Shown here: positions 17,512 through 38,899 of the stretch, piece by piece
Layout: every line of letters begins with the position of its first letter
How positions within the stretch are numbered: position 1 is the stretch's first letter
Assembly (NCBI RefSeq): GCF_013122565.1
Contig: NZ_CP053258.1
Origin: Escherichia coli
GTDB lineage: Bacteria > Pseudomonadota > Gammaproteobacteria > Enterobacterales > Enterobacteriaceae
DNA length: 64,000 nt
Direction: 5' to 3' (one strand)
Position numbers and translations under genes: made by a program
Notes under the pieces: generated by a model
What the model saw: only the letters and a program-made list of their open reading frames with translations
Databases searched by the model: none
What the model was told of the DNA's origin: nothing

Positions 17512-18690
17512 ATGCAATTGCGTAAATTACTGCTGCCAGGACTGCTTTCCGTTACCCTTTTAAGCGGCTGTTCGCTGTTTAACAGCGAAGAAGATGTGGT
17601 AAAGATGTCCCCATTGCCGACCGTTGAAAACCAGTTTACGCCGACCACGGCGTGGAGCACTTCCGTTGGTAGCGGCATTGGCAACTTCTATTCCAATCTT
17701 CATCCGGCACTGGCGGACAACGTTGTCTATGCAGCGGACCGCGCTGGTTTAGTAAAAGCGCTGAATGCGGATGATGGCAAAGAAATCTGGTCTGTCAGCC
17801 TGGCCGAGAAAGATGGCTGGTTCTCTAAAGAGCCTGCATTACTTTCTGGCGGTGTGACCGTGTCTGGTGGGCATGTCTACATTGGCAGCGAAAAGGCGCA
17901 GGTTTACGCGCTGAATACCAGCGATGGTACTGTGGCATGGCAAACTAAAGTCGCGGGTGAAGCACTTTCGCGCCCGGTGGTCAGCGACGGTCTGGTGTTA
18001 ATCCACACCAGTAACGGTCAGTTACAGGCGCTGAACGAAGCTGACGGCGCTGTCAAATGGACAGTTAACCTCGATATGCCTTCGCTCTCTTTGCGTGGCG
18101 AGTCTGCGCCAGCAACGGCTTTTGGTGCGGCCGTCGTGGGTGGCGATAATGGTCGCGTCAGTGCAGTGCTGATGGAACAAGGCCAGATGATTTGGCAGCA
18201 GCGTATTTCCCAGGCGACCGGTTCTACCGAAATTGACCGTCTGAGTGATGTTGACACGACTCCCGTCGTTGTTAACGGCGTTGTTTTCGCGCTGGCCTAT
18301 AATGGTAACCTGACGGCGCTTGATCTGCGCAGTGGTCAGATTATGTGGAAACGCGAACTGGGTTCGGTGAATGATTTCATCGTCGACGGCAATCGCATCT
18401 ATCTGGTCGATCAAAATGACCGGGTGATGGCGTTGACCATTGATGGCGGCGTTACGCTGTGGACACAAAGTGATCTGCTACATCGCCTGCTGACTTCTCC
18501 GGTGCTGTATAATGGCAACCTGGTGGTAGGTGACAGTGAAGGTTATCTGCACTGGATTAACGTCGAAGATGGTCGTTTCGTTGCCCAGCAAAAAGTTGAT
18601 AGTTCCGGTTTCCAGACTGAACCGGTTGCCGCTGACGGCAAACTGCTGATCCAGGCAAAAGACGGAACCGTGTACTCTATTACACGTTAA
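17512..18690 (+). CDS. bamB: BAM complex lipoprotein BamB
   Basis: 392 aa; lipobox LLSGC; beta-propeller repeats. Confidence 0.95.
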   Translation: MQLRKLLLPGLLSVTLLSGCSLFNSEEDVVKMSPLPTVENQFTPTTAWSTSVGSGIGNFYSNLHPALADNVVYAADRAGLVKALNADDGKEIWSVSLAEKDGWFSKEPALLSGGVTVSGGHVYIGSEKAQVYALNTSDGTVAWQTKVAGEALSRPVVSDGLVLIHTSNGQLQALNEADGAVKWTVNLDMPSLSLRGESAPATAFGAAVVGGDNGRVSAVLMEQGQMIWQQRISQATGSTEIDRLSDVDTTPVVVNGVVFALAYNGNLTALDLRSGQIMWKRELGSVNDFIVDGNRIYLVDQNDRVMALTIDGGVTLWTQSDLLHRLLTSPVLYNGNLVVGDSEGYLHWINVEDGRFVAQQKVDSSGFQTEPVAADGKLLIQAKDGTVYSITR

Positions 18691-18748: not shown

Positions 18749-18807
18749 AACAACGACGCGAATATAGCGTGCGTTGTCTGATGATTTATAAAAATGAGGC
18801 TTTAAAC

Positions 18808-20280
18808 ATGGTACCTGTGGTCGCGCTTGTCGGGCGCCCTAACGTAGGAAAATCCACGTTATTTAACCGTCTAACTCGCACCCGAGATGCGCTGGTTGCG
18901 GATTTCCCGGGTCTGACTCGTGACCGTAAGTACGGTCGTGCGGAAATTGAAGGCCGTGAGTTTATCTGTATTGATACCGGCGGGATTGATGGTACAGAAG
19001 ACGGTGTAGAAACCCGCATGGCGGAACAGTCGCTGCTGGCGATTGAAGAAGCGGACGTCGTACTGTTTATGGTGGATGCGCGCGCGGGCCTGATGCCGGC
19101 AGATGAAGCGATTGCCAAACATCTGCGCTCCCGTGAAAAACCGACCTTCCTGGTGGCAAACAAAACTGACGGTCTGGATCCCGATCAGGCAGTGGTTGAT
19201 TTCTACTCGCTTGGTTTAGGTGAAATCTACCCGATCGCCGCGTCTCACGGTCGTGGCGTATTAAGTCTGCTGGAGCATGTGCTACTGCCGTGGATGGAAG
19301 ATCTCGCACCGCAAGAGGAAGTCGACGAAGACGCTGAATACTGGGCGCAATTTGAAGCGGAAGAGAACGGCGAAGAAGAAGAGGAAGACGACTTCGACCC
19401 GCAAAGTCTGCCGATCAAACTGGCGATTGTGGGTCGTCCGAACGTAGGTAAGTCTACACTCACTAACCGTATTCTTGGTGAAGAGCGCGTTGTTGTTTAT
19501 GACATGCCTGGTACGACGCGTGACAGTATCTACATTCCAATGGAACGCGATGGACGTGAGTATGTGCTCATTGACACCGCTGGCGTACGTAAACGCGGTA
19601 AAATCACCGATGCTGTAGAGAAATTCTCCGTAATCAAAACGTTGCAGGCCATTGAAGATGCCAACGTGGTGATGTTGGTGATTGATGCGCGCGAAGGTAT
19701 TTCCGATCAGGATCTCTCCCTGCTGGGCTTTATTCTCAATAGTGGGCGCTCACTTGTCATTGTGGTGAATAAGTGGGATGGCCTGAGCCAGGAAGTGAAA
19801 GAGCAGGTGAAAGAAACGCTGGACTTCCGTCTGGGCTTTATCGATTTTGCTCGTGTGCACTTTATCTCTGCCTTGCACGGCAGTGGTGTTGGTAACTTGT
19901 TTGAATCAGTACGTGAAGCGTATGACAGCTCCACCCGTCGTGTGGGGACCTCTATGCTGACGCGCATCATGACGATGGCTGTTGAAGATCACCAACCGCC
20001 GCTGGTACGCGGTCGTCGTGTGAAGCTGAAATATGCACACGCCGGTGGTTATAATCCGCCGATTGTGGTGATTCACGGTAACCAGGTGAAAGACCTGCCT
20101 GATTCCTACAAGCGTTACTTGATGAACTACTTCCGCAAATCGCTGGACGTAATGGGATCGCCGATTCGTATTCAGTTCAAAGAAGGGGAAAACCCGTATG
20201 CGAACAAGCGTAACACCCTGACGCCAACCCAGATGCGTAAACGTAAGCGCCTGATGAAGCACATCAAGAAAAGTAAGTAA
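18808..20280 (+). CDS. der: Double-domain ribosome-assembly GTPase Der (EngA)
   Basis: 490 aa from ATG at 18808 with GAGG SD (track ORF starts earlier); two GRPNVGKS P-loops. Confidence 0.95.
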
Positions 20281-20342
20281 TTACTTATCTGGTTTCCCTT
20301 TTCTCATGGAGAGGGAAACCGAATAACACGCGAGGAGTATTG

Positions 20343-20558
20343 ATGGAATTCAATTGCCCAACCTGCCATAAACCTCTCGAACATCACGGCGAGACGGCTC
20401 ATTGCGTAACTTGCGACAAAGATTTCACCATCCAGGCACTTTGCCCTGACTGCCATCAGCCGCTACAGGTGTTAAAGGCTTGTGGCGCTGTGGACTATTT
20501 CTGCCAACATGGCCACGGATTAATTTCTAAAAAACGCGTTGAGTTTATTATTGCTTAA
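20343..20558 (+). CDS. yfgJ: Zinc-ribbon protein YfgJ
   Basis: 71 aa from ATG at 20343 with GAGGAG SD; CxxC...CxxC pairs. Confidence 0.85.
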   Translation: MEFNCPTCHKPLEHHGETAHCVTCDKDFTIQALCPDCHQPLQVLKACGAVDYFCQHGHGLISKKRVEFIIA

Positions 20559-20575
20559 TATCATCTGAATGTATG

Positions 20576-20610
20576 GTTTTATCATTTGTATTTAATATAT
20601 AAATGATAAA
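20576..20610. promoter_or_regulatory. Perfect 10-bp inverted repeat in AT-rich region upstream of sinH
   Basis: tttatcattt-N13-aaatgataaa. Confidence 0.3.
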
Positions 20611-20767
20611 GCCATCTCTTATTGGTTAAATCACTAGTACATGTGAGTGAAATCATTTTGATAAATTTTTAGGAATATATTTAGTTTTTCTGACGTGCCT
20701 TCCTGAATGTTCTGGCATAGAATATTAGAGCTTATTCATCAAATTATCATTGCCACAGGGAAAGTGC

Positions 20768-22942
20768 ATGCTGCGATGGAGTCGCTTTATAATGTTACTA
20801 TTTATCTCTGCTGCAACTCCTGCGGCAGAGATAAATAGTAAGCAAAATGAATCGTTACCTGATTTAGGCAGCCAGGCGGCTCAACAAGTAGAACAAACGG
20901 ATAAGGGTAAATCGTTAAAAGAGCGTGGAGCCGATTACGTCATCGATTCTGCTACGCAAGGGTTCGAAAACCTGACCCCCGAGGCGCTGGAATCTCAGGC
21001 CAGAAGCTATCTGCAAAGTCAAATCACCTCAACCGCGCAATCTTATATTGAAGAGACACTCTCTCCCTACGGTAAGGTCCGTTCGAATCTCTCTATTGGT
21101 CAAGGTGGCGATCTGGATGGTAGCTCCATCGATTATTTTGTTCCCTGGTATGATAATCAAACGACCGTTTATTTCAGTCAATTTTCTGCGCAACGAAAAG
21201 AGGACCGTACGATCGGGAATATCGGAATTGGAGCAAGACATAATTTCGATGAATGGCTTTTGGGTGGAAATATATTTTACGATTATGATTTCACCCGTGG
21301 GCATCGACGTTTAGGTTTGGGGACAGAGGCCTGGACCAATTATTTAAAATTTTCTGGCAACTATTATCATCCGCTCTCTGACTGGAAAGACTCTGAAGAT
21401 TTCGACTTTTATGAAGAGCGCCCTGCGCGCGGTTGGGATATTCGCGCTGAAGCCTGGTTACCTTCTTATCCGCAACTGGGGGGCAAAATTGTCTTCGAGC
21501 AATATTACGGTGATGAAGTCGCCCTTTTTGGTACGGATAATTTAGAGAAAGATCCCTATGCGGTGACGCTAGGACTGAATTATCAACCGGTACCGTTACT
21601 GACAGTTGGAACGGATTATAAAGCGGGGACAGGAGATAACAGCGATGTCAGCATTAATGCCACTCTTAATTATCAATTCGGCGTTCCGCTAAAAGATCAA
21701 CTCGACAGCAATAAAGTAAAAGCAGCCCACTCGTTGATGGGCAGTCGCCATGATTTTGTCGAGCGTAATAACTTTATCGTCCTGGAATATAAAGAGAAAG
21801 ACCCTCTGGATGTGACGTTGTGGCTGAAAGCGGATGCGACCAACGAGCACCCTGAGTGCGTCATTAAGGACACTCCAGAAGCGGCGATCGGGCTGGAAAA
21901 ATGTAAGTGGACCATTAACGCACTGATCAATCACCACTACAAAATTGTCGCTGCGTCATGGCAGGCGAAAAACAATGCCGCCCGCACGCTGGTGATGCCG
22001 GTCATCAAAGAAAATACCATCACTGAAGGCAACAACAACCACTGGAATCTGATACTGCCAGCCTGGCAGTACAGCTCTGACAAAGCCGAGCAGGAAAAAC
22101 TCAACACCTGGCGGGTACGGCTGGCGCTGGAAGATGAAAAGGGTAATCGGCAAAACTCCGGCCTGGTTGAGATCACCGTTCAGCAGGACCGTAAAATTGA
22201 GCTGACCGTCAATAACATTGCTGATGTGCCTGATGAGAATAACCACAGCCATGAAGCCAGCGCTCAGGCGGATGGCGTTGATGGTGTGGTCATGGACCTC
22301 GAGGTGACGGACAGTTTTGGCGATAACACGGACCGCAACGGTGATGCTCTGCCAGAAGATAATCTTGCACCGCAGCTCTACGACGCTCAGGACAAAAAAG
22401 TCACGCTAACCAATAAACCCTGCTCGACCGACAACCCCTGCGTGTTTATTGCCAAACAAGATAAAGAAAAGGGAACGGTAACCCTCTCCAGTACATTGCC
22501 AGGCGTTTTCCGCTGGAAAGCGAAAGCGGCTCCCTACGATGACAGTAACTATGTGGATGTCACGTTTATTGGATCTGATATCGGCGGGCTTAATGCTTTC
22601 ATTTACCGGCTTGGGGGAGCGAAGCCAGTCAATTTGATCGGCAATGATAAAGACCCCCTGCCGCTGGGCAACACGTACCGATTTGTGTTGTGGCGTGATG
22701 CCAACAAAGACGGCGTTTTTCAGCAGTCGGAAAAACTAACCGATGAAGAGATGACTCAGTACGACTACAAGTGGGAATTTACCGGCAAGAGCATCAATGG
22801 CGAAGTAGGTGCGCAGGCGAACACATCCAATGCAGACATTGTAATACCGGCGACCAACCGTGAAGCGGCGCAATCCTATGGTGCAAAAGTGGAAGATGGC
22901 TTGCAGGGTTACGGTTTACGCGTGCTGTACACCAAAAAATAA
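20768..22942 (+). CDS. sinH: Inverse autotransporter adhesin, intimin/invasin family (SinH-like)
   Basis: 724 aa from ATG at 20768 with AGGGA SD (track starts at 20750); signal peptide; N-terminal beta-barrel-like region; C-terminal passenger; gene absent at this site in K-12. Confidence 0.8.
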   Translation: MLRWSRFIMLLFISAATPAAEINSKQNESLPDLGSQAAQQVEQTDKGKSLKERGADYVIDSATQGFENLTPEALESQARSYLQSQITSTAQSYIEETLSPYGKVRSNLSIGQGGDLDGSSIDYFVPWYDNQTTVYFSQFSAQRKEDRTIGNIGIGARHNFDEWLLGGNIFYDYDFTRGHRRLGLGTEAWTNYLKFSGNYYHPLSDWKDSEDFDFYEERPARGWDIRAEAWLPSYPQLGGKIVFEQYYGDEVALFGTDNLEKDPYAVTLGLNYQPVPLLTVGTDYKAGTGDNSDVSINATLNYQFGVPLKDQLDSNKVKAAHSLMGSRHDFVERNNFIVLEYKEKDPLDVTLWLKADATNEHPECVIKDTPEAAIGLEKCKWTINALINHHYKIVAASWQAKNNAARTLVMPVIKENTITEGNNNHWNLILPAWQYSSDKAEQEKLNTWRVRLALEDEKGNRQNSGLVEITVQQDRKIELTVNNIADVPDENNHSHEASAQADGVDGVVMDLEVTDSFGDNTDRNGDALPEDNLAPQLYDAQDKKVTLTNKPCSTDNPCVFIAKQDKEKGTVTLSSTLPGVFRWKAKAAPYDDSNYVDVTFIGSDIGGLNAFIYRLGGAKPVNLIGNDKDPLPLGNTYRFVLWRDANKDGVFQQSEKLTDEEMTQYDYKWEFTGKSINGEVGAQANTSNADIVIPATNREAAQSYGAKVEDGLQGYGLRVLYTKK

Positions 22943-32149: not shown

Positions 32150-32157
32150 GATGACCA

Positions 32158-33636
<1,479 letters not shown>

Positions 33637-36933: not shown

Positions 36934-36972
36934 TATCTTCAAGAATTATAGGCTTGAAGTTACTAACATCGA

Positions 36973-37512
36973 TTAATTAAACCAGCTGTCCGATTTGTTC
37001 TCTTCTGCTTTGCCCACGCTTTTCATCAGATCGCGACCGCCTTCAGTCATATTTCTGTTGGCGTCAGCTTCAGATTGCACCACATCGGTTTGCGCAGCTT
37101 TGTGCTTCAGTTCCTGATCGATAAATTCGTTTTCGCGCTTAACGCGGGCTTCTTCTTTCGCCAGCGCCAGTTTTTGTTTCTGAATCTCTAAGCTGCGTAG
37201 CTCATCTTCATAACTTTGATCGCGTTTTTTGTCCGCAGTGGCTTCGGCGTCCAGTTTATCCTGACGAGCTTTCTTATTTGCCGCTGCCGTTGCCGCTCTT
37301 TTGTTAGCGGCGGCCTGGGCATTTGCGCGACGTTGCTTCTCTTGCTGGATTTCCCTGTTGCGCTCCGCGACCCATTCGTCATGCTGCCTTTGCTCTTCAT
37401 TTTTACCTTGCTGTTCCGCTTCTGCGACAGCAGAGAGTTGATCCTGCAATGATGAGGCGATAGCCGGATAGCTTAAGGAGGCTAAGATGGCGCAAAGAAA
37501 AACTTTCTTCAT
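36973..37512 (-). CDS. yfgI: Periplasmic coiled-coil protein YfgI
   Basis: 179 aa; signal peptide; Lys/Glu/Ala/Gln-rich. Confidence 0.85.
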   Translation of the reverse strand: MKKVFLCAILASLSYPAIASSLQDQLSAVAEAEQQGKNEEQRQHDEWVAERNREIQQEKQRRANAQAAANKRAATAAANKKARQDKLDAEATADKKRDQSYEDELRSLEIQKQKLALAKEEARVKRENEFIDQELKHKAAQTDVVQSEADANRNMTEGGRDLMKSVGKAEENKSDSWFN

Positions 37513-37527
37513 GACTCCTCCTGATTA

Positions 37528-38046
37528 TTAGCTCTTTTCAGGACATTTGGTATTTGGCTGAATACGCGTTTCGTTATACGTCGTGGTAATAACAACGGCT
37601 AAACCTGTCGTAAACTGGCACTCTTTACCCACCTGGGTGGAGGTATACACTTTGGTGCCTTCCTTATACGTTAAAGAAACACCTTCCACTAAGGTTTTAT
37701 CATTCACCATAGAACCCGCTGCCGCGCCTACAGCTCCGCCGCCAACTGCACCTGCCGTCGTTCCGGAATTGCTGCCAGACCCGACGTTGTGGCCGATAAC
37801 ACCGCCAGCGACTGCGCCAATAAGCGCGCCGAAGGCTTGTGCGTTCCGTTTATTTTGGGAGTTGTCTACGGCAACTTTTGCGGGAAGAATGGAAATAATA
37901 TTAACGGTTTTAGTTTCTTGTTTGGTATTCAGTTGATCGGTTTGATAAACATCGGCGGCATGATCGTCAGCATTTGACTGGCATCCTGCCAGAGTGAATG
38001 ACGCTAACATTGCCACAGGCAGAAGACATTTTTTAAATTTCATCAC
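37528..38046 (-). CDS. yfgH: Outer-membrane lipoprotein with glycine-zipper region
   Basis: 172 aa; lipobox LAGC; GxxxG-rich segment. Confidence 0.85.
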   Translation of the reverse strand: MMKFKKCLLPVAMLASFTLAGCQSNADDHAADVYQTDQLNTKQETKTVNIISILPAKVAVDNSQNKRNAQAFGALIGAVAGGVIGHNVGSGSNSGTTAGAVGGGAVGAAAGSMVNDKTLVEGVSLTYKEGTKVYTSTQVGKECQFTTGLAVVITTTYNETRIQPNTKCPEKS

Positions 38047-38356
38047 TATTCCTTGTTATACACATTACGAAAAATAAGACATTTAAGATCATCAAAAGAG
38101 GAAAGTAAATGTATTGCGTATAAAGGGATAGATTAAATTTATTAAAATTCACTCGGGGAATAATTTATAAAAATACATCATTACAACATATATATTAATT
38201 TTATATTTATTTCGCAGCCAAACAGGATAAACATCAGTCAGGACAAAGACGTAAAACTTAAGATGGAAGAATATCTGCCGCTTTGATAATCCCAAAGAGC
38301 AAAAGCATCCGACAGCGAAGTGCCGTTATGTTCTGTGAAAGTGGAGAAGGTAACCG

Positions 38357-38548
38357 CTAACGTTGTACCGGTGATTCGACGGAGAGTGTGGATTGCTGAG
38401 CTTCTTTTTTGCTCTGATGGTGCTGCCAGGCACCGACGGACGAGTAGATAAAACGGCCAAAGAAGAAGATAAAGCTGATGAGCAGTACGATACGGGTCAT
38501 GCGACTGTTAAATCGGTGTCGTTTTCGCATACTGGTTGCCTGACTCAC
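38357..38548 (-). CDS. yfgG: Small membrane protein YfgG
   Basis: 63 aa; one hydrophobic helix. Confidence 0.7.
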   Translation of the reverse strand: MSQATSMRKRHRFNSRMTRIVLLISFIFFFGRFIYSSVGAWQHHQSKKEAQQSTLSVESPVQR

Positions 38549-38899
38549 AAAAGGTTCCTTGAAGTATGTCCCACGCTGTGGACGGTACTTACATTAAGGC
38601 ACAACAGGACAAAATGGTCAATTCTTCGTTATGTAAAAAAGCGTCAGCGGATACATATTTTAATGTTATGGAAGTTAATTTAATTATTTACAATGATGAT
38701 GTAATAATGATGAATTAACATGATAAACGTAATAATTCATTAATCAGGGTTATTTTGTTTGATATATATCAATTGGAACTTTCATATGACACTTAGAATC
38801 AATGCTCTCTATAGTGATGAATAATCATCATTCGAAGTCAGGTGGGATGCCTGTCTGAATACACCTCCTTCAGGATGTGGGGGATTCTGCTGAGCATCT

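Follow-up and report, generated by a model that had tools for sequence, protein, structure and literature searches.

The DNA which we have analysed is a window of 64,000 nt from Escherichia coli (contig NZ_CP053258.1), and the question which it raises concerns a small palindrome in the spacer between two genes, yfgJ and sinH. Is it a site in the DNA which takes part in the control of sinH, or does it work in an RNA, and in that case in which transcript? The original prediction considered the spacer as an AT-rich leader of sinH with a promoter silenced by H-NS, and the palindrome as a possible site for a dimeric regulator. The genes found in this region are bamB (17512-18690), der (18769-20280), yfgJ (20343-20558), sinH (20768-22942), a sinI-family gene, an adhesin gene, xseA, guaB and guaA, in this order. 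The window is colinear with strain PT62, with 96-98% identity. Both yfgJ and sinH are read on the + strand. The former is the last gene of the der-yfgJ unit and codes for a zinc-ribbon protein of 71 aa (in PT62 it is annotated as a "zinc ribbon domain-containing protein"); its stop codon is at 20556-20558. The latter codes for an intimin-like inverse autotransporter of 724 aa and is followed on its 3' side by the sinI-family gene and by the giant adhesin gene (~2700 aa), up to xseA. A mechanical list of open reading frames starts sinH at a TTG in position 20750 (730 aa). We favour the ATG at 20768, since it is the start annotated in RefSeq for the gene of PT62, a strain with 96-97% identity, and it is preceded by a conserved AGGGA at 20757-20761. 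The boundaries of both genes had been correctly given in the original prediction.

In strain K-12 the sinH cluster is absent: the 3' ends of yfgJ and xseA share 4 nt, tail to tail, and there is no spacer. The yfgM-bamB-der region of the window is 96.6% identical to that of K-12, and precisely where der stops (20279) the identity falls from ~97% to ~55%. The variable segment therefore starts before yfgJ and includes a divergent allele of this gene, with 66% aa identity to K-12 YfgJ. We considered the palindrome as an island junction or a recombination site and rejected both, since the identity breaks at the der stop and not at the palindrome. In the sinH-positive strains it is the N-terminal half of YfgJ which differs most from K-12, and from one genus to another yfgJ accompanies sinH. 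The spacer of 62 nt between der and yfgJ is also only ~55% identical to K-12; it has a different hairpin, GGTTTCCCT...AGGGAAACC at 20285-20326, with no T tract after it. At the other end of the cluster the final ~60 nt of xseA differ from K-12, where this gene overlaps yfgJ, and GC-rich palindromes similar to REP/BIME elements are found at 32150-32240, between the ends of the giant adhesin gene and of xseA. Further on, just 3' of guaA, there is a perfect copy of the high-affinity H-NS motif TCGATAAATT (PMC2094087) at 37118 and a 9/10 match at 36969. The most AT-rich tract of the window is found at ~38000-38650, where GC content goes down to 24%, and PT62 has a prophage integrase at the position which matches 36969-38650 of the window: another horizontally acquired segment probably starts there.

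The spacer between yfgJ and sinH (20559-20767, 209 bp) is strongly AT-rich, as it had been described: it has 29.2% GC, versus 51.6% for the window, and only 0.5% of the 209-nt stretches of the window are as AT-rich. It contains a perfect inverted repeat, TTTATCATTT at 20578-20587 and AAATGATAAA at 20601-20610, with a spacer of 13 nt. The original prediction located it at about 20576-20610, so that its right end was exact and its left end is displaced by 2 nt. The symmetry is in fact somewhat stronger than had been claimed. The arms extend to 19 nt, 20573-20591 and 20597-20615, with 89% complementarity around a 5-nt loop, TTAAT, at 20592-20596. When the + strand is read as RNA, there is a pair at each of the 19 positions: G-U accounts for two of them and G-C for three, and nearly all the others are A-U. 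This structure with its 10-nt perfect core, which we call stem-loop 1 (20573-20615), begins 15 nt 3' of the yfgJ stop, on the sense strand, and alone it has a folding energy of ~-20.7 kcal/mol. A T-rich but interrupted tail comes after it (CTCTTATTGGTT, 20616-20627, 7 T in 12, + strand), and a small stem-loop 2 is found at 20620-20639 on the same strand, with 7 pairs (TATTGGT / ACTAGTA) and a loop of 6 nt. The fold of the 85 nt from 20556 to 20640 has -24.7 kcal/mol and z = -5.7; none of 200 shuffles was as good.

It is possible for such a repeat to have no function of its own. It would then be part of an AT-rich silencing tract bound by H-NS, and its symmetry would be incidental or kept by processes which act on the DNA. 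The extreme composition of the spacer is in favour of this explanation, and so is a comparison with shuffled sequences. When the dinucleotides of the spacer were shuffled 2000 times, 1.2% of the shuffles had a perfect inverted repeat with arms of 10 nt or more and 3-20 nt between them, so that about 1% of shuffles of such AT-rich DNA have one. One 9/10 match to the H-NS motif, TTGATAAATT, is also found at 20658-20667 on the + strand, with a shuffle P of ~0.06 and no conservation in other alleles. The behaviour of the gene itself points in the same direction. In strain SMS-3-5 the expression of iatB, which is sinH, was not detectable in laboratory culture, its protein escaped detection in all the laboratory conditions tried, and its transcription is raised by transposon insertions which drive leuO and by a leuO plasmid (PMC6714894). 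Two other inverse autotransporters of E. coli, fdeC and yeeJ, have promoters silenced by H-NS (PMC6714894, PMC5595812); sinH resembles them in its AT-rich upstream region, in its silence in laboratory culture and in its activation by an H-NS antagonist, and differs in that its link to H-NS comes through LeuO only. H-NS silencing of sinH is plausible, with indirect support: the tract is AT-rich, of the kind found in H-NS-silenced regions, and the dependence of a silent gene on LeuO fits silencing. In the literature on the regulation of sinH/iatB, on H-NS, on transcription start sites and on the CS54 island, the LeuO effect is the only result which we have found; our search gave no hns-mutant, ChIP or footprint results for sinH/iatB.

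A different picture appears when the alleles of the spacer within the species are compared. We have studied nine distinct E. coli alleles, which are ~80-96% identical to the window. In the structure with two hairpins 97.4% of the stem cells pair across the nine alleles, versus 34-55% when the partners are slid by 1-3 columns, and RNAalifold independently predicts both hairpins. There are compensatory changes in two pairs: at 20-58 six alleles have U-A and three have G-C, and at 33-45 there are six alleles with A-U, two with G-C and one with G-U. In stem-loop 2 all the cells are paired (100%) in the nine alleles, with four one-sided changes between G-U and A-U. Variation of the G-U type is found at 12 pair positions, versus two for A-C. 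The level of pairing falls from 97.4% for the + strand to 86.6% for the - strand (binomial p = 0.0065, a value obtained from nine related sequences). What we find are therefore compensatory and wobble-compatible changes on one strand, as it is the case for conserved RNA structures, in a sample of only nine related sequences; shuffle statistics are inflated, since these sequences are related by descent. The asymmetry between G-U and A-C is explained neither by a DNA operator nor by a cruciform, and it indicates an RNA made in the direction from der to sinH. It is also unexpected for neutral DNA, and an incidental symmetry would hardly keep its pairing with compensatory changes through a sequence divergence of ~18%. 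As a separate observation, two strains have an IS1 between yfgJ and sinH: SC516 (L005, 1789-2486) and 200164 (L035, 359-640). In 200164 the end of IS1 abuts the 3' arm and destroys the hairpin.

Of 5426 complete E. coli genomes, 1610 have the stretch of 82 nt which includes the palindrome, always at this locus, with a median of one place per genome and two at most. A search for the motif elsewhere in the genome had been suggested; as a rule the palindrome is a single-copy locus. This rules out a dispersed repeat of the REP, ERIC or MITE type. The element is found between genes in a 3' position, like the REP/BIME extragenic palindromes, which in such places stabilise the upstream mRNA; unlike them it is single copy and AT-rich and it lacks the REP consensus. 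The hairpin has only chance-level matches in Rfam 15, to microRNA models, with 20.9 bits versus a gathering score of 95. By inspection we also discarded a Fur box, since the core AATGATAA coincides with GATAATGATAATCATTATC in only 8 of 19 positions.

The same arrangement of yfgJ and sinH is found in E. whittamii, E. albertii, Escherichia clade strains, Citrobacter, Pseudocitrobacter, Superficieibacter, Salmonella and one further genus. The spacer has ~205-250 nt in most genera and ~345 nt in Salmonella. Hairpins with different sequences appear 8-31 nt 3' of the yfgJ stop in E. whittamii, Escherichia clade strains, Citrobacter, three Pseudocitrobacter and the further genus. In the E. whittamii group, for example, the arms read GGGAATATAT...ATATATTCC; those of Citrobacter read GTCCCGAAATATTCAT...ATGAATATTTCGGGAC, and P. 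vendiensis has GCTCTGG...CCAGAGC. The + strand has a more negative z-score than the - strand in 13 of 18 orthologues (mean z -3.5 versus -2.2); the orthologous hairpins have many G-U pairs on the + strand and few or almost none on the - strand. The distance of the hairpin to the yfgJ stop has an s.d. of 8.7 nt and that to the sinH promoter block, described below, of 11.1 nt, a difference which does not discriminate between the two genes as its partner. No significant hairpin is present in E. albertii or in either of the two Superficieibacter, which indicates that the element is dispensable. In Salmonella Inverness a GC-rich, REP-like imperfect palindrome directly follows yfgJ (L040, 1156-1215) in place of the AT-rich hairpin; its fold is more stable on the - strand (-39.4 versus -31.0 kcal/mol).

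For a palindrome without a function of its own, the lineages which lack the hairpin are a favourable point; its recurrence with different sequences in several genera is the opposite. Together with the pattern of changes within E. coli, this makes us regard such an explanation as rather improbable. It is only the incidental character of the symmetry which is disfavoured: binding of H-NS to the tract could be compatible with an RNA hairpin.

The reading which we prefer, with a confidence only somewhat above even, is that the palindrome is the 3' stem-loop of the der-yfgJ transcript, and that it may act as a weak, non-canonical terminator or as an exonuclease barrier which insulates sinH. An A-U-rich stem-loop of 19 bp would form in the 3' untranslated end of der-yfgJ, followed by the small second hairpin. 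Transcripts from der and yfgJ, two genes needed constitutively, would end at the stem or would be trimmed back to it. The stem could be an intrinsic terminator of a weak, non-canonical kind, a barrier to 3' exonucleases, or both, and it would shield the normally silent sinH from read-through. The latter gene is probably driven by its own activator-dependent promoter ~100-125 nt further downstream, in AT-rich DNA of the kind bound by H-NS. Both the end of the transcript at stem-loop 1 and the insulation of sinH are what we infer.

Like Rho-independent terminators and the protective 3' stem-loops of enterobacterial mRNAs, the element is a stable hairpin located in the sense strand, a few nt past the last stop codon of an operon. 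It also resembles them in the conservation of structure rather than of sequence and, in the window allele, in a tail which contains T. In a lenient terminator scan the window allele passes, with 19 pairs, three of them G-C, and the tail CTCTTATTGG (5 T in 8). There are also differences with a Rho-independent terminator: the stem is almost all A-U instead of rich in G+C, the T tract, which is interrupted, is not conserved from one genus to another, and the E. coli allele p4A, with a homologous tail, fails in the same scan. The tails of 18 orthologues have no enrichment in T, 44% versus a background of ~40%. For these reasons (the A-U stem, the failure of p4A and the orthologous tails) we call it a non-canonical 3' stem-loop and not a textbook intrinsic terminator. 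We searched the literature for transcript 3' ends in a sinH-positive strain and found none.

Downstream of the hairpin there are features which probably belong to sinH itself. The best-conserved non-coding block of the spacer is TTTTTAGGAATATATTTAG at 20666-20684 (+ strand), a candidate activator site or UP-like site. The window has a single copy of it. Salmonella (L040) has the identical sequence and six other genera nearly so; the block is conserved as far as Citrobacter, Pseudocitrobacter and Superficieibacter. A TAnnnT hexamer (TACAAT, TATAAT, TAAAAT) follows it at 33-34 nt in 16 of 19 orthologues; two lineages have a distance of 22 nt, one helical turn less. In the window this hexamer is TAGAAT, at 20718-20723 on the + strand: a putative -10 with no recognisable -35. 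The absence of a -35 is typical of promoters which depend on an activator. A simple sigma-70 scan is blank at this place, because the -35 is poor. The start of sinH transcription is predicted at ~20730, which gives a 5' UTR of ~38 nt and places the conserved block at about -64 to -46. The AGGGA at 20757-20761 (+ strand), similar to a Shine-Dalgarno sequence, is found 6 nt before the ATG, and CAGGGA is conserved across genera. Taken together, the block and the -10-like hexamer probably form the true promoter of sinH, with an activator site on its upstream side.

The position of this promoter bears on the term "leader" applied to the spacer. With a probable start at ~20730, the centre of the palindrome is ~136 nt upstream of it, and the hairpin starts 15 nt after the yfgJ stop: for most of the spacer, leader is a misnomer. 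A true long leader of sinH could still exist if RNA polymerase reached the gene from der-yfgJ by read-through, or started from a promoter located where yfgJ ends; in either case the hairpin would be an attenuator or a processing site. This would agree with a structure found on the sense strand of sinH and with the conservation of both tandem hairpins in E. coli. However, our scan gives no promoter-like site upstream of the hairpin, and the conserved block and the -10 are found downstream of it at a fixed spacing. In Salmonella an inserted REP-like element separates yfgJ from what remains of the spacer. Neither an alternative pairing nor a leader peptide is apparent: the sole short open reading frame, MVLSFVFNI (ATG at 20573), loses its start in allele A10, which has ATT. 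We consider a regulatory hairpin in a sinH leader as very unlikely.

The conserved block also contains TAGGAATA, the reverse complement of tatTCctA, a half-site of RcsB; the whole RcsAB box is TaAGaa followed by tatTCctA (PMC3950696). In alleles of B2 type the sequence is TAAGAATATATTTA, which by inspection has 11/14 positions in common with the box. The similarity to RcsAB or BglJ-RcsB boxes concerns the block at 20666-20684 and not the palindrome, and the second half-site is mismatched. We know of no experimental link between Rcs and sinH, and we treat the half-site as a lead rather than as a finding. Other readings of the block, as a site for PhoP, CpxR, SlyA or Lrp, were rejected by eye, due to a misfit in spacing or symmetry. 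A sequence similar to a CRP site, TGTGA-N6-TCATT, is found at 20642-20657; it has an 8/10 match by eye and it is poorly conserved.

An operator in the DNA is the explanation which the original prediction had put forward for the palindrome. The best candidate among dimeric regulators is LeuO, a LysR-type antagonist of H-NS, which from a site far upstream of the sinH promoter would relieve silencing. The effect of LeuO overexpression on the iatB transcript of SMS-3-5, mentioned above, is in its favour. The core LeuO site at cas and leuO is a 19-bp palindrome with two half-sites of 7 bp and a spacer of 5 bp (PMC6698644). We derived an operator ATATTCA-N5-TGAATAT, which includes T-N11-A and fits this description, from the K-12 sites of cas, ATATTCATACTGTGAATAT, and leuO, ATATTGATTTGGTGAATAT. 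In Citrobacter MGH106 the apex of the palindrome has this operator in full (14/14). It is approached (12/14) in four lineages besides Citrobacter: matches of this quality are found in a Pseudocitrobacter MAG, in Escherichia clade strains, in the E. whittamii group and in Superficieibacter 1612. Each of these matches, as well as that of Citrobacter, has a shuffle P of ~0.01 or less. In Salmonella and three other lineages the match is not significant.

The palindrome of the window shares with the LeuO sites of cas and leuO that it is AT-rich and is located upstream of a silent gene of the H-NS type with a LeuO-responsive orthologue. However its arms are far longer, its geometry is 10-13-10 and not 7-5-7, and its LeuO match is 9/14, at 20588-20606, 3 nt off the centre of the dyad. 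In SMS-3-5, the strain in which the effect of LeuO was measured, the match at the palindrome is only 10/14. The best match in the spacer of the window is in another place, the -10 region: a 7-5-7 palindrome, ATGTTCT-GGCAT-AGAATAT, at 20707-20725 on the + strand, which overlaps the putative -10. It reaches only 11/14, a score found in 8% of shuffles (P = 0.08). Alleles A10 and SMS35 (11/14) and p4A (10/14) have this palindrome in the corresponding place.

The arms themselves are also against an operator. They have 16-19 bp, more than one DNA-binding dimer contacts, and G-U pairs are kept on one strand, a pattern which DNA recognition would not select. The substitutions, together with the unrelated sequences of the hairpins across genera, indicate the evolution of an RNA structure and not of a sequence-specific operator. 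The dimeric regulator site is a poor fit to a palindrome with compensatory changes, with G-U pairs preserved and with pairing maintained on the + strand only; it is the less likely use of the window palindrome, and a LeuO operator at this place appears unlikely. Still, the match to the LeuO core at the apex in some orthologues means that a role in the DNA may coexist with the role in RNA. For some relatives we find it credible that the palindrome contains a LeuO site, while the sequence of the window suggests it only faintly.

Such coexistence may be imagined as an element of dual use, in which the 3' stem-loop of der-yfgJ would carry at its apex an ancestral LeuO operator, degraded in this allele. 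It would anchor a LeuO/H-NS switch, and the block at 20666-20684 would be an activator site, possibly for an RcsB heteromer. We give little credence to this combination as a whole. If it were true, the palindrome would be the upstream anchor of the switch which controls sinH, the gene of an adhesin considered as a vaccine candidate.

As the 3' stem-loop of der-yfgJ, which is the reading we prefer, the palindrome would be an ordinary 3' hairpin, a new instance of a familiar type of element which should not surprise a specialist. The spacer would have two parts: the stem-loop would belong to the upstream operon, and it is the conserved block and the -10 hexamer which likely control sinH, a map which can be used to dissect the promoter. 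There are efforts to develop vaccines against extraintestinal E. coli with SinH as the antigen, and for studies of its expression the conserved promoter block would be a more useful lead than the palindrome.
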